A stretch of DNA of 8,693 bases from a virus (IMGVR_UViG_2684622582_000003:1-8693), one strand, 5' to 3'; counted from the stretch's first letter, positions 1-8,693 are shown. Numbers and translations: made by a program. Notes: generated from the sequence alone by a model not told the origin.

Positions 1-9
1 GGTTATATG

Positions 10-1038
10 TTATTTCACCTGTACCACCACGAACTCATCCGGATCAGGGAGTACCATCAGCGGCGCGGACTGCGTCATGGTGAATTCACGGGCGGGATCA
101 CCCACTGTCATCCAGTGTTTCGGGTAACGGGAAGAGGCCACCACACCTTCCGACAACGCCTGCGCATCCTGAATGGCACCGTAACAACGGATCCCATCTG
201 CAGCAGTATTCCCCAGGACCAGCGTGCCATCTGGCAGATAACGTTTTTCGGTACCATCCTCTGATACATAAGACGTTTTCGCCACCACAATGGCCAGATC
301 GCCGTAATACCCCTTGAAGGACACCACTGCGCCCAGATCTTTCACTGCCGTTTCGAGTTGTGAATTTGAACCGCGACGGGTATCCAGTTTTTCGCGAAAC
401 AGCTTAAAACCATTCAGCAGACGCCAGACGGTACCGTCCATGATGGCAATATTCACAAGACCGCTGGCCTGGTCGCAGTAGAGGTCAATATCATGTGTAG
501 GATCGAACGTGTCACGATCCTGTTTTGACCATTCCTTACCGCTACCCTGTGTGATGTTATTCTTCGTCGACCTGCCAAAATCGACCTCAATTTTCTCGAA
601 CTGGTCTCCTTCCATGGTGTATTTGCCATACAACACAGCATTTACCGCCTGCATTTCTTCCACCTGGACAATCGCGTGCTCTTCCTGTTTGAGGTTATCG
701 GTAATGATACGCAGACGGCGGTAAGCCGGATCGTTCAGTTGAGATGGATCTTCACCAGGAAGGCGCTCAACCGCCTGCTGGTAATTAAATTCGTGTTTCG
801 GCTTGACGTAGCCCGGACGCAACACGCGGGTTTCACCCCCACGATGACGCAGCACTTTTCCTTCAACAACCGGGGAGACATAGGCCGCCACCGGCGTTTT
901 TCCGGTAATTTTGTCCAGCATCACCTCTTCGGTCTGGAAATTCACCGTACGGCGGAAAAACAGCTCCAGAAACAGCGCACGAAATTTAACTTTTTGTTCG
1001 GTATAACCGAGCAACTGGCGGGTCGTAAACAATCCCAT
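10..1038 (-). CDS. E: Major capsid protein, lambda gpE-like
   Basis: 342-aa ORF with ATG start (lambda E is 341 aa). Long collinear similarity to lambda gpE as recalled (e.g. PGYVKPKHE, AYRRxRII, EEMQAV, KYTMxGExF, RGSNSxLETAVKDLG, GDPAREFTMxQSAPLM). Lies directly downstream of the D homolog as in lambda; AAGGA-like SD about 9 nt upstream. Confidence 0.95.
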   Translation of the reverse strand: MGLFTTRQLLGYTEQKVKFRALFLELFFRRTVNFQTEEVMLDKITGKTPVAAYVSPVVEGKVLRHRGGETRVLRPGYVKPKHEFNYQQAVERLPGEDPSQLNDPAYRRLRIITDNLKQEEHAIVQVEEMQAVNAVLYGKYTMEGDQFEKIEVDFGRSTKNNITQGSGKEWSKQDRDTFDPTHDIDLYCDQASGLVNIAIMDGTVWRLLNGFKLFREKLDTRRGSNSQLETAVKDLGAVVSFKGYYGDLAIVVAKTSYVSEDGTEKRYLPDGTLVLGNTAADGIRCYGAIQDAQALSEGVVASSRYPKHWMTVGDPAREFTMTQSAPLMVLPDPDEFVVVQVK

Positions 1039-1065
1039 AAATCAGTTCCTTCATTCAGAAATAAG

Positions 1066-1087
1066 TCAGGCCACCGCAGTGGCCTGA
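1066..1087 (-). promoter_or_regulatory. Perfect 9-bp stem / 4-nt loop hairpin in the D-E intergenic region
   Basis: tcaggccac-cgca-gtggcctga read directly. Sits 8 nt after the D stop and 28 nt before the E start; on the mRNA strand it is followed by CUUAUUUCU. Function not determinable from sequence. Confidence 0.45.
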
Positions 1088-1094
1088 TAATGTG

Positions 1095-1442
1095 TTACGG
1101 CAGCGCCGCATGACTCAGGGCACTACCGGAAAAGGCGTTGGCCTTTTTGTGTTCATCCACACTCTCAGGCCAGTGAATTGCCTCCGTCGCAAAAGTCCCC
1201 GACTTGTAATACGTCAGTACCGTCTCTGTGCCTTCAAGCGGCAGTACCAGTATGCCAACCGCACCACCGGCTTTCTGTCCGTCCCAGACCACCAGTTTCC
1301 CGGTGGCCTCATCCAGCATCAGAGGCGTCAGAGCCGGTGTCGCCGAGGAAATCCCGCTGCTACCTGTGGCTGTATGAGCCGGATCATTACCGGAAAAAAT
1401 ACGTACTTCCGCACGCTGTTCAGTGATGGTTTTCGTTACCAT
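1095..1442 (-). CDS. D: Head decoration protein, lambda gpD-like
   Basis: 115-aa ORF with ATG start (lambda D is 110 aa). Matches recalled gpD motifs (DPAHTAT, TPLMLD, KLVxWDG, GAAVGIL, YKSGTF). Position between C and E as in lambda; GAGG SD upstream. Confidence 0.93.
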   Translation of the reverse strand: MVTKTITEQRAEVRIFSGNDPAHTATGSSGISSATPALTPLMLDEATGKLVVWDGQKAGGAVGILVLPLEGTETVLTYYKSGTFATEAIHWPESVDEHKKANAFSGSALSHAALP

Positions 1443-1478
1443 ATTATTAAAACCTCATATTGATGATCAGCAGTGGCT

Positions 1479-2264
1479 TTATGGCATGGCCATGAGCATT
1501 TTTACGTCCGCATCACCGTCTGCTGACGTTTGTGACATGCCGCCCTGTACCGCTGCCGGTGAATGGTTCGCCATGAAACGTTCAAACATGGATGTCGTGG
1601 AGGCAGAGACTGGTTCAGCTTTACCTGATGCAGCAGCCAGTACAGCCCGGGCATTCTCCACGGACATCCCCGGGCAGGCCGCCAGTTTTTCAGCCTGCGC
1701 CTCAGCCCCTTTCGCCTCATCCAGGGCCATGATTTGATCACGGAGTGATAGTCCGGCATCCGCCCGTGGTGAAGCAGCCAGGATCGGGCGGGCTTTTTCC
1801 ACTGTCATATCCGGCATCGCCGCCAGCGTTGCAGCCAGTTGTTCACGACCTTTCGCTTCTTCACACGCCATAATGCGATCGGCTTCACTCAGCGGGGATG
1901 CCTCCGGCTGCTGCGGTGCCGCCGCTGCCAGAATCGCCCGGGCCTGCTCAACGCTCATGCCCTGTTGTCCTGCCAGCATCGAGGCAAGCTGTTCACGTCC
2001 TTTCGCTTCCTGGCATGTCAGGATCCCCATCACTCGCTGGTTCTCCTGCGCGACGGCTTCCGTTGCAGTTAATTGCGGCATAGTGCCTCCTGTATCATGT
2101 GTGTTCAGCGTCGCGGCCATCACGCTGATGGCATCCGACGCATTGATTAATTCATCCGCCAGCCCGGCCTCAATACCTGACTGCCCTTCAAAAACTGCGG
2201 CCTCTGTCCCCATAACCGTATCCACAGATAAACCGGTATACATCGCCACTTTTTCAGCAAACAT
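1479..2264 (-). CDS. Nu3: Candidate nested scaffolding protein, Nu3-like (in-frame internal start within C)
   Basis: Inference from lambda, where Nu3 is made from an internal in-frame start at about codon 239 of C and shares its stop. Here in-frame ATGs exist at codon 241 (2262-2264) and codon 231 (2292-2294). The exact start cannot be fixed from sequence. Confidence 0.35.
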   Translation of the reverse strand: MFAEKVAMYTGLSVDTVMGTEAAVFEGQSGIEAGLADELINASDAISVMAATLNTHDTGGTMPQLTATEAVAQENQRVMGILTCQEAKGREQLASMLAGQQGMSVEQARAILAAAAPQQPEASPLSEADRIMACEEAKGREQLAATLAAMPDMTVEKARPILAASPRADAGLSLRDQIMALDEAKGAEAQAEKLAACPGMSVENARAVLAAASGKAEPVSASTTSMFERFMANHSPAAVQGGMSQTSADGDADVKMLMAMP

Positions 2265-2984
2265 CCGGCGCGCCGCATCAATGCGCTGCTGCATGTCCTG
2301 GCGAACCTCTGACGGCAGGGATTCAAACTGATTGCCATCCACCTTGTGCGATCCGGCGTAAATAAGCGTGATATCAACACCGGCCTGCGCCAGATGACCG
2401 GCATAGCTGACATGGCTCATCATCACACCAATGGAGCCGATACGTGATGTCTGGGTAATCAGCCGTCGGGAACAGGCCGATGCCAGCAGCATTGCCGCAG
2501 AGCAGGCCGTGTCATTGCACAGCGCCCAGACAGGCTTCTGCTGCCGGAGGCGGTAAATCATGTCAGCGCAGTCAAACGCGCCGGCGGCCTGTCCACCAGG
2601 GCTGTCAATATCCAGCAGTACACCCCGCACCTGGGTATCCGACATTGCCTGCTGAAGACAGGCGACAATGCCGTCATAACCTGTCATTCCGGAAAAAGGC
2701 CGCATGCCACCCAGCCGGTGCACCAGCGTGCCTGTCACCGGCAGTACAGCAATACCATTCACCACCCTGTAAACACGGGCCGGTCGTTTTCCTCCGGCCA
2801 TGTACTCGTCCGTTTCAGCCAGCATCCCGGGAGCATCAAGCTGTACCTGCTGTTGCGGTACCGAAAGACTTGTCGCACCCATCTCACGCCCCAGCGCGCA
2901 AAAGAAAACCCGCGCATAGGCGGGCTCCAGAAGCAGCGGTTCATTGAATGCTGCTGCAATAATGTGTGAAAGATTACGTCTCAC
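1479..2984 (-). CDS. C: Head maturation protease / scaffold fusion, lambda gpC-like (S49/ClpP-like fold), with expanded C-terminal repeat region
   Basis: 501-aa ORF (lambda C is 439 aa). N-terminal two-thirds collinear with recalled gpC (AFNEPLxLEPAYARVFFCAL, NGIAVLPVxGTL, YSGMTGYxGI, GGxxAGAFDCAD, KPVWAL, GSIGVMMxH, ITLIYxGSHKVDGN). Start is GTG at 2984 with GAGGAG SD about 10 nt upstream; overlaps the B stop by 11 nt. Confidence 0.9.
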   Translation of the reverse strand: MRRNLSHIIAAAFNEPLLLEPAYARVFFCALGREMGATSLSVPQQQVQLDAPGMLAETDEYMAGGKRPARVYRVVNGIAVLPVTGTLVHRLGGMRPFSGMTGYDGIVACLQQAMSDTQVRGVLLDIDSPGGQAAGAFDCADMIYRLRQQKPVWALCNDTACSAAMLLASACSRRLITQTSRIGSIGVMMSHVSYAGHLAQAGVDITLIYAGSHKVDGNQFESLPSEVRQDMQQRIDAARRMFAEKVAMYTGLSVDTVMGTEAAVFEGQSGIEAGLADELINASDAISVMAATLNTHDTGGTMPQLTATEAVAQENQRVMGILTCQEAKGREQLASMLAGQQGMSVEQARAILAAAAPQQPEASPLSEADRIMACEEAKGREQLAATLAAMPDMTVEKARPILAASPRADAGLSLRDQIMALDEAKGAEAQAEKLAACPGMSVENARAVLAAASGKAEPVSASTTSMFERFMANHSPAAVQGGMSQTSADGDADVKMLMAMP

Positions 2985-4566
2985 GTGGTGTTGTCTCCTC
3001 TTCCGGCCTGCGACTCTCCGCTATCTGCTGCTGATACGCCTGCGCTATCCACACCGGGCGTGAGAGCCCGGCTTTTTCCCGCTCTGCGGATTCCCTGACC
3101 TGCTGGCGGAAAATGTCCTGATAATCCTCGCCCATCAGTGCCAGTTCTTTCTCATACGTGCTCAGTCCGGCCTCAATGCGCATCACCGACTCCTGAACCT
3201 CCTTGAGTCCATCGATGGCCATTCTTCCGGAGCCAATCCACTCTGCCCGTGACCAGGCTGAACGCGCCTGATAAAAATCAAAACGCGCCCGTGGCGGACG
3301 AATAATCCCCCGAAGAAGCGCCTCTTCCAGCCAGCAGGAAAACATCTGCGTGGCCAGCCGGGACGCAATAAATTTTCGTCGCCCCATAAAATAACGCCAC
3401 GACTCATTGGCTGAGGCACGGGCACTTGAGTAACTGACCTTCGAGTAATCACGGGACAACTGTTCGTAGGAAACGCCAAGACCGGCGGCGATATACCGCA
3501 GCAGCGCCTGTTCAAGCGCAGAAAATCCATTATCTGAATCCTGCGCAGTCTGCAATTTCAAATCATCCCCGGGGAAAAGGTGCGGAATTTTGACACCGCC
3601 CAGCGTCACGTTATTCGTGTCATACCAGCGGGTGAACTTCTCCAGAATATTAATGAGCGGATTATCCTGCTGACTCTGCGGTGCACCCGCGATATATTCA
3701 AAGGCCTTTTCGGTATCGAGTTCACTTTCAATCGTCGCTGCATACATCGCCTTCACTATGGCCGACTGAAGCTGCGTGGTCTGCAGGGAATCGAGCATTT
3801 TCAGCCGTTCCATGACGCTGTAAAACTGATTAGCCCCACGGGTCTGCCCGTCCTCAACCGGCTCGAAAATATGCAGCATGGCCGGACGCCCGGTGGGAAG
3901 TTCACGCGGGATCCGTTCCCATCGTCCACTACCAGAGAACGGAAAATCATCCTCACAGATATGGTACGCAACGGCCCGTCCATACCGATCGACTTCCACC
4001 CCGGCCCGCAGGAAACGGTTACCCATACCGTGTCCCGGCGTGTCCACCCGTTTAGGGCTCACGGCTTTAAAACGCGTGCGGAATAACCGCGTGGTTTCCG
4101 TATCCCAGACCGGCTGCACAAAGATTTCACCGTTAAATGCATGAACGCCCACACCTTCACGGATAAATTCCGTAAAGGTGCGTTTCCCTTCCACATCGAT
4201 CTCGCCAAACATTCCTTCCGCGTATTCCGACCAGGCCGCCTCCACCTCATCGACAAAGATTTTTGCCGCGGACTCCCGCATCCCAAGCCAGCGCCAGTTC
4301 GGACGGTAACTAATAAGAAACATGTGCCCGACAATGTGATCCTTATGCAGGGCCACCGCATTGGCCGCTATACCGTTATTGCGTACCAGATCATCTGCAC
4401 GGGCATTCCCCAGACGCAACGCAGGCAGCAGGGCAGCATCAACACCCTGCGCCGGTGGTAACCACTCGGCCATTTGCCCGCCAAATCCTGCGCCGCCCCC
4501 GTTGTAGCTGAGACTCTCACGAAGCGGAACGCCGTTCACATCAATCAGGACTGGCGTTCGTTTCAT
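2974..4566 (-). CDS. B: Portal protein, lambda gpB-like
   Basis: 530-aa ORF (lambda B is 533 aa). N-terminus matches recalled gpB (GGGxGFGGQ, VDAALLPxxxxGNARADDLVRNNGxAANAxxLHxDHIVG). The ATG start overlaps the W stop as ATGA. Confidence 0.95.
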   Translation of the reverse strand: MKRTPVLIDVNGVPLRESLSYNGGGAGFGGQMAEWLPPAQGVDAALLPALRLGNARADDLVRNNGIAANAVALHKDHIVGHMFLISYRPNWRWLGMRESAAKIFVDEVEAAWSEYAEGMFGEIDVEGKRTFTEFIREGVGVHAFNGEIFVQPVWDTETTRLFRTRFKAVSPKRVDTPGHGMGNRFLRAGVEVDRYGRAVAYHICEDDFPFSGSGRWERIPRELPTGRPAMLHIFEPVEDGQTRGANQFYSVMERLKMLDSLQTTQLQSAIVKAMYAATIESELDTEKAFEYIAGAPQSQQDNPLINILEKFTRWYDTNNVTLGGVKIPHLFPGDDLKLQTAQDSDNGFSALEQALLRYIAAGLGVSYEQLSRDYSKVSYSSARASANESWRYFMGRRKFIASRLATQMFSCWLEEALLRGIIRPPRARFDFYQARSAWSRAEWIGSGRMAIDGLKEVQESVMRIEAGLSTYEKELALMGEDYQDIFRQQVRESAEREKAGLSRPVWIAQAYQQQIAESRRPEEETTPRET

Positions 4567-4766
4567 AACCTCACTCCCAGCGGGCGACGGCGGCGGGTTG
4601 TCCCCAGTACCGACTCCGCATCATTGATAGCACGATTAAGCTCATCCAGAGAGGCTGCCGTATATTCAATTCTGCGACCATCTTTCTGGACCGACACCAC
4701 CCGTTTACCGGTTAATAAATCAAGACGCGCCTGACGCAGCGCCTGCAGTTCAGCGACTGTTACCAT
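4563..4766 (-). CDS. W: Head-tail joining / DNA-stabilisation protein, lambda gpW-like
   Basis: 67-aa ORF (lambda W is 68 aa) with motifs LxTGKRVxxVQKDGRRxEYTAxS and TxRRR. ATG start at 4766 overlaps the end of A by 17 nt. Confidence 0.9.
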   Translation of the reverse strand: MVTVAELQALRQARLDLLTGKRVVSVQKDGRRIEYTAASLDELNRAINDAESVLGTTRRRRPLGVRL

Positions 4767-6678
4767 TCACTCCTCCGGACAGCTTCGCTGCCAGTTCTTC
4801 AAGGGTTGGCCGGGTCGTCTCTTCTTCCCGGGATTTTGCCAGTACAGCCAAATCAAGCTGCCAGCGTTGCATGGACACACGTAATGCTGCGTAGGCATAC
4901 ACCAGGCAGTCCAGCGCTTCGTTACGCCGCTTTTTGTTATCCCACAGCAGGCGCATCTTTCCTTTTTCCCACTTCTCCACAAGCTCTTCCGCGACCAGTT
5001 GCTGCGCCTCTGTCTGCGAAAAAATCTCCGGATTATCAGGAAAACGGATGGCATACGATGTGGCTTCATCCGCAGGTGTGGGACTGGCTTTCATACGGGC
5101 ATAGAGAATTTCTTTTGCGGTGTCCGTCCCCACTTCACACAGATACACGCCCCGCTGATTGCGGGTTTTCGGCATGGTGATCACCGGCTTGCCATAGACA
5201 GACGCGCCTTTTACCGGCAGCACACGGAAAACACCGTGTTTTTTTGACCTCTGATAGACGATTTCGCCATCGATCCCCCCGGTGTCCCAGCAGACACGGG
5301 AAATGGTCATTTCGGTGCCATCCGCATGGCGGTATTTTTTGTTAATCACCGCGTCCACACGTAACAGCGTCTCTTCCTCATCAGGACGCCCCATAATGAT
5401 GATTTTATCCACCAGAAAAGCTTCCTCTCCCGGTGCCCATCCCCAGACATACATCTCAAAACGGTTTCGCTGCGAGTCAATGCCCGCCGTCAGATAAACC
5501 ACCCTGTCAGGTACCGCCGCCGTGTAGTGCACGACCTTATCCATCAGAACCTGGTGATCGAGTTTTTCGCCTACGGCCTCTTCGTAGGTCTCGCCCAGCG
5601 TGGTGTTCACAAAGGTTTTCAGGCCGTTAGGATCTTTCAGCGCATCCAGCCAGTCATAGACTATCTGTACCCAGGTGGTAAACGGGCTATAGACCGTCCA
5701 GATGTGGAAAGTGATGGATCGCGGTGGCGGCATCTCCTCATCACCCGCGCTGTAAAATGTCAGGCCGTCACGTGTCCACATTCCTGTATTGTCACAAATC
5801 CAGCGCCCGTCAGTCTGGTCAAGTTCCGACTGACGGATCACACAGCCATTATGCTCACACAGGTAATACACCGTTTCCGGTTTACCCTTCTCCCATTTCA
5901 GGCCAAACGGCGTGGATTCATCACCAAACTTCAGATACTGCATCTCCCCACAATGAGGACAAGGAACATAAAACCGCATGAAATGCGCCGACTCGTTAGC
6001 GGCTTTTTCGATCTGGCAGGTGCCTTTGGTTTTGGGCGTCGAGCCGCGTATGGATTTAGGCCATACCGAACCTTCAATACGTTTATCGCCAAGCAGTGTT
6101 GGCGAACCTTCTTTTTCCACATCCGGTTCAAACGAGGAGAGTTCGTCATAACAGACCACATCCACAGATTTTTCACGGTAATTTTTTGCTGCCGCGCCAC
6201 CCAGACACCAGAAACCCACGCCGGAGGAAAAACGCTTCAGGGTGAGCGTATTATCGCGGTGTTTTCTTCCGAACCATGGAGCCAGATCCAGCAATGCAGG
6301 AACATCCCTTATTGTTGGCTCGACATGAGATTTCATGAAATCCTCGGCGGCAGAATCTGTTGGCTGAAAAAGCAGACTGTTACGGGATTTATGCTCAATG
6401 AAATAGGCTTCCACCCCTAACAGCATTTTGGTATAACCGACGCGCGCCGATTTAATCAGATTAATGGTGCGGATCCGGTCATTTCCCATGCTGTTCATAA
6501 TGGCAACCTGAAACGGCAGTGTTTCCCATTTCCCGGGAGTATATGAAGATTCTTTCGGCAGATAATAATGTTGATCAGCCCACTGAACTGTTGTCAGTGG
6601 AACCGGAATATTGAGAGATAAAAGCCCTGTAGCTATCGCACCGGCTGCATTAGCTGCCTTCTGTGCGTCTGAAATCAT
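4750..6678 (-). CDS. A: Terminase large subunit, lambda gpA-like
   Basis: Near full-length collinear similarity to lambda gpA as recalled (WADxxYYLPKES, WETLPFQ, SARVGYxKMLLGV, HVEPTIRD, KRFxxGxGFWCLGG, YDELxxF, [26 protein letters not shown], [39 protein letters not shown]). The ORF track begins at a non-ATG codon at 6720; I place the start at the ATG at 6676-6678 (MISDAQ...), which gives a lambda-like N-terminal length and a lambda-like overlap with Nu1. Confidence 0.93.
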
Positions 6679-7198
6679 CGATCCACCCGCCCACGTTTTT
6701 ACCGACTTTAGCTGCAACATTGGAGGCTTTCGCGATTTCAGTTTTCACCACATCAAGATGTGATGGTGAAATGTCTGGATATTTACGCTGTAACGTCAAC
6801 GGCACACGCACAAGTATCCCCGAAATTTCCTGTGCTACACGTTGCAGAATGAAGGTAAACAATTCAGTTTCCAGAACCATTCCTTCTTCTCGGGCATTTT
6901 TCAGTTCCTGCGCATCTGCCTGTGCTTTTGTGAGTCGGTAGCGCTCATAGTCAATGGTGCCGGGTTGTAAATCTGACTCCGCAGCCGCACGCAAATCGTC
7001 CAGTTCTTTGCGGAGCTTTTCGTTTTCGATATCTTTTTCCCGCTGCGCATACCACTCAATGGCTTCTGCAGAATTGAACATGACCTCAATGCCTTTGCCA
7101 CCCCCCGACAAAACTCTCAGCCCCTGGCTTTGCCAACCAGTAATTGTTCTGACATCGCACTCAAAAATCTCTGCCAATTTCTTTTTATTAACCTTCAC
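6650..7198 (-). CDS. Nu1: Terminase small subunit, lambda gpNu1-like (N-terminal winged-HTH cosB-binding domain)
   Basis: Strong similarity to recalled lambda Nu1 (VNKKxLAxIF, RTIxxWQxQG, VLxGGGKGxEV, ENEKLRxExxxLR, [28 protein letters not shown]). No in-frame ATG aligns with the lambda start; the best fit is GTG at 7196-7198 (GTG-AAG-GTT-AAT against lambda ATG-GAA-GTC-AAC). An alternative GTG lies at 7205-7207. The start is about 176 nt from cosN, as in lambda. Confidence 0.88.
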
Positions 7199-7206
7199 AA
7201 AACACA

Positions 7207-7373
7207 CCTGTCACAAAAAGAAGAAAGGATCTAAAAACGATTTTTTCAGCGAAAAATCACTGCTGCCAGATCCTTTCTTTTTTTAAAAAAGAATCTAGTA
7301 AACAACAAGTTACTCAGAAGAAGAACGGATCTGCTTTTTCCGGGAAAATTTTCATAAATAGCGAAAACCCGCG
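7207..7373. promoter_or_regulatory. cosB: terminase small-subunit binding region with three R-like repeats (R1 about 7215-7231, R2 about 7266-7280 inverted, R3 about 7316-7331) and an AT-rich spacer
   Basis: In lambda orientation the repeats read GATCCGTTCTTCTTCT (R3), AAAGAAAGGATCTGG (R2, inverted) and GATCCTTTCTTCTTTT (R1), in the same order, spacing and orientation as lambda R3/R2/R1 between cosN and Nu1. The AT-rich stretch between R3 and R2 (7281-7310) is where lambda carries its IHF site I1. The core differs from lambda (CGTTTCC). Confidence 0.8.
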
Positions 7374-7385
7374 AGGTCGCCGCCC
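7374..7385. other. cosN cohesive-end segment (12-nt 5' overhang; terminase nick sites flank this interval)
   Basis: The + strand aggtcgccgccc is the reverse complement of lambda's cohesive end GGGCGGCGACCT. Flanks cccgcg (7368-7373) and cgtaac (7386-7391) also match the lambda cosN flanks as recalled. Confidence 0.9.
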
Positions 7386-7634
7386 CGTAACCTGTCGGAT
7401 CGCTGGAAAGGACCCAGTAAATGAGAATAATTATCACTTGCGTTAATATCCTGTTTCTTCCACCCTCGCACAGGACTGGCGAGCATGAGGGACAAACCCG
7501 CGAATCATTAGCGCGGTAAAAACCCGGTGTGCATCGTTTTTGATTATTCCCGCACACTCGCGCAGAAGGAGTTCCCCGTCGGGCTGCGGTCATGGTTAAT
7601 GCGGGAATACGGCGACGATACAGCGCATGATGTG
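7386..7634. other. Noncoding genome right-end segment (expected to contain cosQ near cosN)
   Basis: Lies between the stop of the Rha-like gene and cosN. No convincing ORF; the only ORF here (7246-7593, minus) runs across cosN. cosQ is placed by position only (lambda has it a few tens of bp from cosN on the right-end side); I do not recognise a motif. Confidence 0.4.
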
Positions 7635-8183
7635 TCAGGCTTGAATACCCTTATCGAATCCCGGTAATAAAAACTGTCCCTGCCTTTCCAGGCGTTTCAG
7701 CTTTGCAAGCAATTGAGTTTTTTTCGTTCTTCCCCAGCGATTGAGCAGGCGGCCAGACATACTGGCGACATCCTTCTCTTTCATATACTCCAACATTATG
7801 GCGTTGCGTTCTGCTTCATAACTTTCGCTGTACTTACGGAGTTCTGCTGACATCCAGTTAAAGGCATTTATATAGGCCTCTTTAACGGCGTCGGCTTTTG
7901 CGCCATTAAATCCCATGACCAGCATAACGAAGCCACTAAAGTCCATGCGGTAGTAAATCTGTTTCTTGTCGAAAATCCCTAAATCATTGATTTTTTCGGC
8001 AACGCAAAAGTGCGCTCTCCGGAAATCTTCAGAGCAATGACAATTTTTCAGCGCCCTCAATACGTCCGCATGACGCTTACCAAATGCCTTTGCGATCTGG
8101 AAAGTGTCAGTTACCGGCTCACCCTCTGCTGCGGTAACTAACTGGCGAAAGTCAAAATCAGGAGTCTCAATTAATTCACTCAT
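7635..8183 (-). CDS. Phage regulatory protein, Rha family (N-terminal Rha-like DNA-binding domain), accessory gene between the lysis cassette and cos
   Basis: 182-aa ORF with ATG start and a GAGTAGG SD-like sequence about 12 nt upstream. Motifs FGKRHADVLRAL and MGFNGAKAxxxKEAYINAFNWM fit the Rha / Phage_pRha family signature as I recall it. The C-terminal 70 aa are basic, probably helical, and unassigned. Occupies the Rz-to-cos slot where lambda carries bor. Confidence 0.6.
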   Translation of the reverse strand: MSELIETPDFDFRQLVTAAEGEPVTDTFQIAKAFGKRHADVLRALKNCHCSEDFRRAHFCVAEKINDLGIFDKKQIYYRMDFSGFVMLVMGFNGAKADAVKEAYINAFNWMSAELRKYSESYEAERNAIMLEYMKEKDVASMSGRLLNRWGRTKKTQLLAKLKRLERQGQFLLPGFDKGIQA

Positions 8184-8335
8184 GTCGTATGCCTACTCTT
8201 TGAAATGAACCTTTGCCGCACAGGAAACCAGCCCACCGAGGCTCGCCAGCACTAACTGGTATCCTCAAAGGCCCATTCCAAAGGGTCAGGTTCGGTGGTT
8301 ATTGTGCGCTGCGGTGCGCGGTGAAATACCTATAC

Positions 8336-8359
8336 AAAAACGCCCCGCATCTGCGAGGC
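8336..8359 (-). terminator. Intrinsic-terminator-like hairpin plus U-run downstream of Rz
   Basis: On the minus-strand RNA: GCCUCGCA-GA-UGCGGGGC (8-bp stem with one G-U pair) followed by G-UUUUU. Lies 43 nt after the Rz stop codon. Confidence 0.5.
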
Positions 8360-8401
8360 ATTTTCCTGAAAGTCACTTGTTAAATTTCAGTGAGATTAAA
8401 A

Positions 8402-8693
8402 TTATTTTAAGCATTGCGTCCTGATGTACTCCTGCAGGTAGTTAACCTGCGCGGTTATCTTGTCGATTCCACTTCGGAGACGGTAATAATTGAGTTCAGC
8501 ATCTGCTGTAAGTCTTGGGCTTTCTCCATCGCCCATGCTGCTGGCTCCGGTCGTTGACTTTGCACAGGTGGCGGCGACTTGCAGGCGCTTACGACCAGCA
8601 GAAACATCAGCACGGAGACTTTCGATAGTCGCGTTAGCATCAGCAAGCTCCTTTGTGTATCTGGCGTCGAGTTCTGCTACATCACGTTGACGC
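8402..8693 (-). CDS. Rz: i-spanin Rz, 3' portion (5' end lies beyond the window)
   Basis: Minus-strand frame translates to RQRDVAELDARYTKELADANATIESLRADVSAGRKRLQVAATCAKSTTGASSMGDGESPRLTADAELNYYRLRSGIDKITAQVNYLQEYIRTQCLK-stop, matching recalled lambda Rz (RQRDVAALDAKYTKELADAK...AAGRRRL...SPRL...QCR). Stop codon TAA at 8402-8404. Confidence 0.9.
   Translation of the reverse strand, partial: RQRDVAELDARYTKELADANATIESLRADVSAGRKRLQVAATCAKSTTGASSMGDGESPRLTADAELNYYRLRSGIDKITAQVNYLQEYIRTQCLK
8455..8640 (-). CDS. Rz1: o-spanin Rz1, outer-membrane lipoprotein, embedded in the +1 frame of Rz
   Basis: ATG at 8638-8640 gives a 61-aa product MLTRLSKVSVLMFLLVVSAC-KSPPPVQSQRPEPAAWAMEK... with signal peptide, lipobox (VSAC) and Pro-rich mature region, like lambda Rz1. 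Entirely inside Rz in a different frame. The ORF track starts two codons upstream at TTG. Confidence 0.85.
   Translation of the reverse strand: MLTRLSKVSVLMFLLVVSACKSPPPVQSQRPEPAAWAMEKAQDLQQMLNSIITVSEVESTR

Follow-up and report, generated by a model that had tools for sequence, protein, structure and literature searches.

The window, by which we mean the whole stretch of 8,693 nt that was analysed, is the entire contig CXYT01000023.1 of a bacterial draft assembly (GCA_001268365.1; listed among our loci as L115, whose sequence is the reverse complement of window 3650-8693). It resembles the lambda left arm read backwards, with all genes on the minus strand, and the order along that strand is Rz/Rz1, a Rha-family gene, cos, Nu1, A, W, B, C, D and E. 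The genes and the one protein domain needed below are as follows:

10-1038, minus strand: E, major capsid protein (Pfam)
1095-1442, minus strand: D (Pfam)
1479-2984, minus strand: C, protease/scaffold (Pfam)
2974-4566, minus strand: B, portal (Pfam)
4563-4766, minus strand: W (Pfam)
4750-6720, minus strand: gpA/TerL, ATPase and cos-nicking endonuclease (Pfam PF05876, PF20454)
6650-7198, minus strand: Nu1/TerS small subunit, 182 aa, GTG start (Pfam PF07471, E=3e-85)
7057-7198, minus strand: N-terminal winged-HTH DNA-binding domain of Nu1, codons 1 to about 47, recognition helix at residues 15-24
7635-8183, minus strand: Rha-family regulator with C-terminal ORF11CD3 domain, 182 aa, accessory (moron-slot) gene (Pfam PF09669, PF10549)
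8402-8693, minus strand: C-terminal part of Rz, 96 codons, running off the contig end (by translation; called as Phage_lysis in the related scaffold L110)
8455-8646, minus strand: Rz1, embedded in Rz (Pfam PF06085)

Nu1, gpA, W, the portal, C, D and E are all full-length and have strong Pfam matches. The head genes are 93% identical to those of phage 21, and gpA likewise has 93% nucleotide identity with phage 21 gene 2; translation from its probable homologous start, the ATG at 6678, gives the 642 aa that are called in most related contigs. A gap of 437 bp separates Nu1 from the Rha-family gene, for whose homologue RefSeq uses the name 'Rha family transcriptional regulator'. Two further open reading frames cross or flank cos, one of 115 aa (7246-7593, minus) and one of 46 aa (7527-7667, plus); both have no Pfam match and are not called in related contigs, and we regard them as spurious. 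An Rfam scan of the whole window returned no family, a promoter and terminator scan of 7100-8693 found no more candidates than in shuffled sequence, and Tandem Repeats Finder reported nothing at the cos junction.

The original prediction had placed Rz/Rz1 and an accessory gene on the far side of a cos site and had concluded that the window crosses the junction of the virion ends. The gene map agrees on both counts: the Rha/ORF11CD3 gene, Rz1 and the end of Rz at 8402 lie beyond cos, and a lambda-family cos stands where the lysis end meets the terminase and head genes. In addition, the same element (8692/8693 identical) was found inside a 247,762-bp metagenome scaffold (L110), where it is followed by all the head-completion and tail genes of a lambda-like phage. 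Because the window is a bacterial draft contig and a scaffold of this length carries the same element, the earlier view that this is prophage DNA with cos joined, and not linear virion DNA, is supported. The presence of a lambda-family cos also supports the cohesive-end type of packaging that had been proposed.

Positions within cos are given as bp n, which corresponds to window position 7386 - n, and the coordinates of the subsites were transferred from the curated phage 21 record OL657228, in which cosQ, cosN, R3, I1, R2 and R1 are annotated. The following elements were located:

7409-7415, minus strand: cosQ (GGGTCCT), packaging-termination subsite, bp -30 to -24 from the left cohesive end
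7374-7385, minus strand: cosN 12-mer GGGCGGCGACCT, 12/12 identical to lambda and phage 21
7337-7368, minus strand: I2, AT-rich, between cosN and cosB, bp 18-49, equal to lambda through bp 43
7321-7336, minus strand: R3 of cosB, AAGCAGATCCGTTCTT, bp 50-65, predicted main TerS binding site
7300-7312, plus strand: I1 of cosB, predicted IHF site AAACAACAAGTTA, bp 74-86, one mismatch to WATCAANNNNTTR
7264-7279, plus strand: R2 of cosB, TGCCAGATCCTTTCTT in the plus-strand reading, bp 107-122, inverted relative to R3 and R1
7221-7236, minus strand: R1 of cosB, TTTTAGATCCTTTCTT, bp 150-165

The lambda 12-mer has a single exact match in the 8,693 nt, running from 7385 to 7374, for which the chance expectation is 0.00, and none of 200 dinucleotide-preserving shuffles matched; a search that allows two mismatches is expected to give about one match per window and is therefore uninformative. 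The claim that the 12-nt end is identical to that of lambda is thus borne out, and its strand is now fixed as minus. The window was also aligned to both ends of NC_001416 joined, the comparison named in the original prediction. It agreed with lambda at 28/30 positions from -30 to -1, at 12/12 in the cohesive end and at 31/31 from bp 13 to bp 43, that is, at 71/73 over a 73-bp block from cosQ to bp 43, and past bp 43 the identity drops to 60%. The sequence and offset of cosQ are those of lambda and of the annotated cosQ of phage 21 (OL657228 42902-42908 of 42931), and of 98 related cos sites that we inspected, nearly all retain this subsite. I2, defined as about bp 18-50 (PMC4856287), follows on the other side of cosN.

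The context of cosN reads TTACG-GGGCGGCGACCT-CGCGG, so that conserved CG dinucleotides flank the predicted nick positions. The nicks would fall at 7386/7385 on the minus strand and at 7374/7373 on the plus strand and would leave 12-nt 5' overhangs; the ends forecast earlier at 7385/7386 and 7373/7374 follow correctly from the alignment. The left end of the virion (bp 1) is accordingly placed, as a prediction, at 7385, with packaging toward lower coordinates. The distance of about 176 nt that had been given between the cohesive end and the Nu1 start equals the difference between 7374 and 7198. The interval 7207-7391, which had been described as a complete cos, comprises cosN and cosB; cosQ at 7409-7415 lies outside it, and the extent had to be revised. 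One related contig (L121) begins at bp 14, a single base beyond the nick predicted for the bottom strand, and was considered as a natural trace of cos cleavage. This reading was rejected because the block common to co-resident lambdoid cos sites ends at bp 43, from which a k=31 unitig reaches back 30 nt to bp 14.

The cosB segment contains three R boxes. The motif AGATCCKTTCTT was found exactly three times in the window, all within 7221-7332 (chance expectation 0.00), as R3 on the minus strand (7321-7332), R2 on the plus strand (7268-7279) and R1 on the minus strand (7221-7232). The coordinates of R2 are those of phage 21 R2 (107-122), and R1 of phage 21 is annotated at 150-166. The distance from R3 to R1 is exactly 100 bp, and the arms of each pair are separated by 35 nt. 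The R cores start at bp 55, 117 and 155 in the window as in phage 21, at 55, 118 and 157 in lambda, and at 55, 118 and 156 in Gifsy-1, so that the geometry of cosB is kept within 2 bp across the four; this agrees with earlier knowledge that the spacing of cosN and R3 has to be constant (PMC9026076, PMC4669245). For I1, the IHF consensus with one mismatch is expected 6.3 times per window and is not significant by itself; the call rests on position, since 7300-7312 coincides exactly with the annotated I1 of phage 21 (bp 74-86). In the spacer between R2 and R1, single-sequence folds gave small stems, and the invariant features are a T-run, about 6 nt and an A-run in a spacer of constant 36 bp. 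A conserved hairpin formed by the inverted repeat in this spacer was considered and was not demonstrated (RNAalifold covariation term 0.22, only one compensatory pair).

The sequence of the R boxes sets the site apart from both lambda and phage 21. All three read AGATCC(G/T)TTCTT, which is the Gifsy-1 type. At bp 53-59 the window has CAGATCC where lambda has CGTTTCC, and phage 21 has C(G/A)TGTCGG. Relative to lambda the boxes differ at bp 54-56 only, and bp 57-65 (TCCGTTCTT) are common. The recognition core of R3 is bp 54-59, with bp 56 and bp 59 critical (PMC4669245); at bp 56 all three boxes carry A:T, a third allele, and at bp 59 they carry the allele of lambda. None of them has the form that marks lambda specificity (CGTTTCC(T/G)TTCT, T:A at bp 56), nor does the locus have the features of phage 21 specificity (CATGTCGG.CCT boxes, G:C at bp 56, G at bp 59 and the helix DPRTIERWQS). 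A cosB between cosN and Nu1 had been predicted and is present with its three R boxes, but their sequence is not that of lambda. Likewise, the term 'lambda-type' holds for cosQ, cosN, I2 and the architecture of cosB but not for the R boxes and the Nu1 helix, which are Gifsy-1-like.

The protein expected to read these boxes varies with them. The GTG start of Nu1 at 7198 (bp 188) aligns with the ATG of lambda (191), of phage 21 (189) and of Gifsy-1, and the PGAP annotation of a relative uses the same start; the longest Nu1 reading frame begins at an upstream in-frame GTG at 7207, the left coordinate of the interval originally described. The N-terminus matches PDB 6hn7_B (E=3e-39) and 1j9i_A, the solved DNA-binding domain of lambda TerS. 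The recognition helix is SIRTIQNWQE in lambda and DPRTIERWQS in phage 21. Residues 17-24 are RTITGWQS in the window and RTIQNWQE, with Glu24, in lambda; residues 20, 21 and 24 therefore differ (TG..S vs QN..E), and the window has Ser at 24. TerS residue 24 is reported to contact bp 56, and Glu24 of lambda to favour T:A and to clash with the G:C of phage 21 (PMC4669245).

The core AGATCC(G/T)TTC at lambda-like positions, present in all three boxes of the window and identical in sequence to that of the Salmonella phage Gifsy-1, defines a wider class. When IMG/VR was scanned for a lambda-family cosN with AGATCCGTTCTT after it at the right distance, 96 viral contigs with an AGATCC R3 at the spacing of the window were obtained. 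The Gifsy end GGGCGGCAGCGT was found in 51 of them and the lambda end in the other 45, and since the class is split in this way the cohesive end does not define the class of cosB. The contigs represent at least five cosB lineages, in which the spacers have strongly diverged and the R boxes, the position of I1 and the spacings are kept, a pattern that we take as the phylogenetic footprint of function. Residues 15-24 of Nu1 were DVRT[IV]T[AG]WQ[SN] in every N-terminus recovered from AGATCC loci (68 loci, with four distinct N-terminal sequences besides that of the window), and over about 70 loci the co-variation of R-box class and helix class is perfect. A similar scan of a genome-contig collection for cosN and an AGATCC R3 gave no enterobacterial match, not even Gifsy-1 in Salmonella, and that collection is uninformative here; its three matches (Kitasatospora, Streptomyces and an Oscillospiraceae MAG) look like chance. 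Gifsy-1 is counted among the lambda-like phages with an R3-I1-R2-R1 cosB (PMC9026076), and the list of the Feiss laboratory gives its cohesive end as differing from lambda at bp 8, 9 and 11 (PMC9026076, PMC4669245). Our literature search for experiments on the packaging specificity of the AGATCC class returned none, Gifsy-1 being mentioned only in passing.

Comparison with close relatives indicates how such a cosB came to stand before these head genes. From window 7063 down to 10 the sequence is 93% identical to phage 21, starting at bp 324 of the latter and extending through the major capsid gene. Within Nu1, nucleotides 1-135 have 56% and nucleotides 136-549 have 94% identity with phage 21. 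An exact look-up of the portal protein led to three prophages (L107, L108 and L112) that share 99.0% identity with the window across 7,063 bp (window 1-7063) and lose similarity at the same point; beyond the break, these 99%-identical relatives have CATGTCGG R boxes and the 21-type helix, and both specificity features of phage 21 were found in L107-L109. Compared with L107, Nu1 is 61% identical over nucleotides 1-135, 95% over 136-549 and more than 99% thereafter, and the last clustered mismatch is at nucleotide 142 (window 7057). At the other edge, the window and L107 reconverge in the common I2 block at about bp 43. Judged from these alignments, Nu1 is a chimera, with codons 1 to about 45-47 of the AGATCC class and codons 46-182, like the head genes, from the phage 21 family (93-94%). 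Since prophages that are 99% identical over these 7 kb have a 21-type cosB and helix, we conclude that a cassette of about 290-330 bp, consisting of cosB and the winged-HTH domain of TerS, has been exchanged and that the swap is recent. The C-terminal, TerL-binding domain of TerS and TerL remain matched to each other, which is the arrangement that lambda-21 hybrid genetics would require. Swaps of specificity have been speculated to generate diversity (PMC4669245).

The chimeric form recurs in other samples. Exactly this Nu1 is present in 24 blocks of public assemblies; among the ten of these 24 loci that were listed, five extend through cosQ with a canonical R3, and all five have cosQ, the lambda cosN and an AGATCC R3. 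In curated collections the closest cosB/Nu1 belongs to SerU-LTIIb (91%), followed by 10 of 5,426 complete E. coli genomes (89-90%). These relatives combine the same cassette with a third family of cohesive ends, and this third family is in turn paired with at least three types of cosB. Because the AGATCC cosB is seen with lambda, Gifsy and third-family ends, and third-family ends with at least three cosB types, cosQ-cosN-I2 on the one hand and cosB with the DNA-binding domain of TerS on the other are to be viewed as independent modules that reassort separately.

Together, the locus has what characterizes a lambda-like cos in the sense of Feiss, namely a 12-nt end, cosQ, a complex cosB, and an adjoining Nu1-family TerS and gpA-family TerL. 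We are highly confident that the region 7198-7415 (minus strand) is the intact lambda-family cos of an integrated lambdoid prophage, in which the lambda/21 allele of cosQ-cosN-I2 is combined with a Gifsy-1-like cosB cassette; its cleavage and its binding by IHF and TerS are predicted from homology. Following the paradigm of lambda and phage 21, winged-HTH dimers of Nu1/TerS would bind R3 and the inverted R2 across a hairpin bend induced by IHF at I1, with R1 as a third TerS site. Bound TerS would anchor gpA/TerL on cosN, which has the canonical spacing from cosB (R core at bp 55), and TerL would nick the two strands 12 bp apart at the predicted positions. Terminase would then remain on the end bearing cosB, and DNA would be translocated toward lower coordinates, that is, Nu1, A and the head genes onward, until termination at the next cos through cosQ, cosN and I2. 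Termination is independent of the class of cosB (PMC4669245).

Several other readings of the site were weighed against this one. The two-mismatch expectation of about one match per window is what a 12-mer arising by chance, with no cos function, could appeal to, and we discard that reading altogether: the exact expectation of 0.00, the position of the 12-mer inside the block of 71/73 identity with lambda and the right gene context rule it out. E. coli harbours many defective lambdoid prophages, the draft contig that forms the window is short and covers 8.7 kb of the element, and the relative SerU-LTIIb is clearly degraded: its Nu1 is split, and terS is immediately followed by tail-fibre genes. 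The site might thus be a relic in a defective or cryptic prophage, one that is no longer cut or packaged. Yet every subsite is intact and in register, the seven packaging and head reading frames are all full length, the near-identical element of L110 runs into complete head-completion and tail genes, and the same cos and Nu1 recur almost unchanged in independent samples; we consider a relic quite improbable. Far more remote, and effectively refuted by the gene content, is the idea that the site belongs to a phage-inducible chromosomal island or other satellite that hijacks the terminase of a helper. The cosQ and cosN of such islands are nearly identical to those of lambda-like phages (PMC9026076), but their cos is without repeated R sequences and is followed by an rpp gene (PMC9026076), whereas the window has three R boxes and I1 and then a full Nu1, gpA and head genes.

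The alternative that deserves most discussion is that cosB is functionally that of lambda, so that the site would have true lambda packaging specificity and would be a normal substrate for lambda terminase or packaging extracts. The lambda-identical cosQ, cosN and I2 speak for it, as do the identical architecture and spacing and the sharing of bp 57-65 of the R boxes, including the important bp 58 and 59 (PMC4669245). However, all R boxes carry three consecutive differences at bp 54-56 (CGTTTCC to CAGATCC), and bp 56 is a genetically defined discriminator between lambda and phage 21 (PMC4669245). Residue 24, one of the three helix residues that differ, is the partner of bp 56 (PMC4669245), and the perfect co-variation of R boxes and helix also stands against lambda specificity, which we judge unlikely. 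On the preferred reading of a Gifsy-1-like cassette, the specificity of initiation is very likely distinct from that of phage 21. For lambda we put distinctness at only somewhat better than even, because the R boxes differ at bp 54-56 alone; that N15 terminase packages lambda DNA is a precedent for cross-recognition (PMC4669245). The prophage would therefore make cohesive ends identical to those of lambda, with an initiation specificity that is probably neither that of phage 21 nor that of lambda.

Beyond this, we tentatively propose, as a possibility that we rate somewhat below an even chance, that the AGATCC cosB and the DNA-binding domain of its TerS constitute a fourth lambdoid initiation specificity, after those of lambda, 21 and N15/Monarch, carried on a mobile, self-contained cassette of about 290-330 bp that is bounded by I2 and about codon 47 of Nu1 and is independent of the cohesive-end allele. 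If so, the window and its 21-type siblings would be a natural isogenic pair differing in the cassette only, and selection may favour swaps of this kind as a way to escape cross-packaging by lambdoid prophages and satellites resident in the same host, or competition with them. Breaks between the draft contigs suggest that the host strain has several lambdoid prophages, and such co-residents, if present, would favour selection for a private specificity.

The cos site itself is an ordinary textbook feature, and it fixes the virion ends, the direction of packaging and the module annotation for this prophage. What is notable is a Gifsy-1-like cassette in a 21-like head module: a known kind of site in a new mosaic combination, which is incremental rather than surprising. 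Conceptually, it shows that a site with the exact cohesive end of lambda need not have the packaging specificity of lambda, which should not be assumed here since the R boxes and the Nu1 helix are of the AGATCC class. Furthermore, the window and its 99%-identical 21-type relatives provide a natural pair for studying how TerS residues 20, 21 and 24 read bp 54-56, and would extend the contact-and-clash genetics of lambda and 21 to a third allele, A:T at bp 56.

Among the named systems, lambda (NC_001416) shares with the window the complete cohesive end, cosQ with its offset and bp 13-43, as well as the arrangement of cosB (R3, I1, inverted R2, R1), in which the R3 core starts at bp 55. It differs in cosB, where bp 44-187 are 60% identical, in the DNA-binding domain of Nu1 (60% protein identity), in the Nu1 start (bp 191, against bp 188 here) and in the accessory slot, which holds bor and the lambdap78/79 genes in lambda and Rha in the window. 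Phage 21 (OL657228/M81255) has the identical cosN, 67/73 identity from cosQ to bp 43 and the same annotated subsite coordinates, and nucleotide identity is 93-94% over Nu1 codons 46-182, gp2 and the whole set of head genes, whereas its R boxes (CATGTCGG against CAGATCC here), nucleotides 1-135 of Nu1 (56%) and helix (DPRTIERWQS) belong to another class. Gifsy-1 (NC_010392) presents the reverse: the AGATCC(G/T)TTC core is in all its boxes at the same positions, in the same R3-I1-R2-R1 layout and with the same helix class (DVRTVTAWQS), but its cohesive end GGGCGGCAGCGT differs from the window at bp 8, 9 and 11. Its spacers are diverged (66% identity in cosB), and identity is 71% in the DNA-binding domain of Nu1 and about 72-74% over the remainder of Nu1 and the head genes. 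The closest cosB/Nu1, in SerU-LTIIb (KU052038) and E. coli 08-00022 (NZ_CP013662), has 87-91% identity in cosB and the same chimeric Nu1 structure and GTG start (93%), with the end segment …CACCG GGGG(A/T)C(G/T)G(C/G)(A/G)GA CGCGC… instead of the lambda 12-mer. The lambda-21 hybrids of the Feiss laboratory, made by crossovers inside Nu1/gene 1, follow the same domain logic, in which DNA specificity comes from cosB together with the N-terminal domain of TerS, and the choice of TerL partner from the C-terminal one (PMC4669245); in the window, too, the crossover falls between these two TerS domains. In contrast to those hybrids, the window is natural and carries a third, Gifsy-like module, and public assemblies contain the recombinant form as well as the parental, 21-type form, at 99% identity to each other.

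The segment between Rz and cosQ (window 7386-8401) was compared with the corresponding segments of L107-L112, L003, L006 and L002, and on the basis of this sequence comparison it is a hypervariable cargo site. The genes carried are listed below.

Cargo in the slot between Rz and cosQ
Window: Rha+ORF11CD3
L107 (prophage 99.0% identical to the window over 7,063 bp): KilA-N/ORF11CD3 and SDH-family protease
L108 (likewise 99.0% identical): IS21 insertion
L109 (prophage with 21-type cosB): DUF3950
SerU-LTIIb (E. coli prophage): LT-IIb enterotoxin
Phage 21: TonB-C protein
Lambda: bor

The window (1-8693) is the entire draft-assembly contig CXYT01000023.1 (GCA_001268365.1), with one of its ends falling within Rz and the other just beyond gene E, and the contigs encoding its chimeric Nu1 are mostly 5-10 kb long. 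Together, these features suggest that the assemblies break at sequence common to other lambdoid prophages of the same genomes.

One open reading frame within this contig carries internal repeats.

1479-2984, minus strand: C/Nu3 ORF, 501-aa protease/scaffold protein

Its product exceeds lambda gpC by 62 aa. Its scaffold part (residues about 300-470) contains three protein-level repeats of ~40 aa each, following the pattern …EAKGREQLA…M(S/T)VE(Q/K/N)AR(A/P)(I/V)LAA…; Tandem Repeats Finder found no DNA-level repeats in the ORF. For TerL, there are two candidate ATG starts, between which public gene calls are divided, and the phage 21 homologue matches the one at 6678.

6720: candidate TerL start, 656 aa
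6678: candidate TerL start, 642 aa

Natural variants were observed in related loci. Contigs L116 and L120 share a T->A change at R3 bp 57 (AGAACCGTTC), equivalent to window 7329, and encode the identical chimeric Nu1 despite this substitution, which by position is a natural variant inside the predicted recognition core. Another variant, at about 7181-7192 in L109 and L111, lies in a half that the literature places under selection; these prophages may be defective, or the variant may be tolerated.

A second putative cohesive-end family, with the pattern …ACACCG GGGG[T/A/G]C[G/T]G[G/C/T][G/A]GA CGCGC…, was observed in L010:2400-2480, L003:2930-2990 and L123-L132. Its cosQ, flanking CG dinucleotides and I2 are all retained, the central 12-mer differs between phages, and it occurs with at least three distinct types of cosB, one of which is the AGATCC type of the window.

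Within cosB, the R2-R1 spacer of every AGATCC lineage contains a central T-run followed, after ~6 nt, by an A-run.

7237-7263 (bp 123-149): R2-R1 spacer of the window, T-run/A-run element GATTTTTCGCTGAAAAAATC

Because a hairpin in this spacer received no covariation support, the T-run/A-run may instead be a bend or spacing element. The spacer length is fixed at 36 bp across all AGATCC lineages; lambda and phage 21 have spacers of 36-37 bp.
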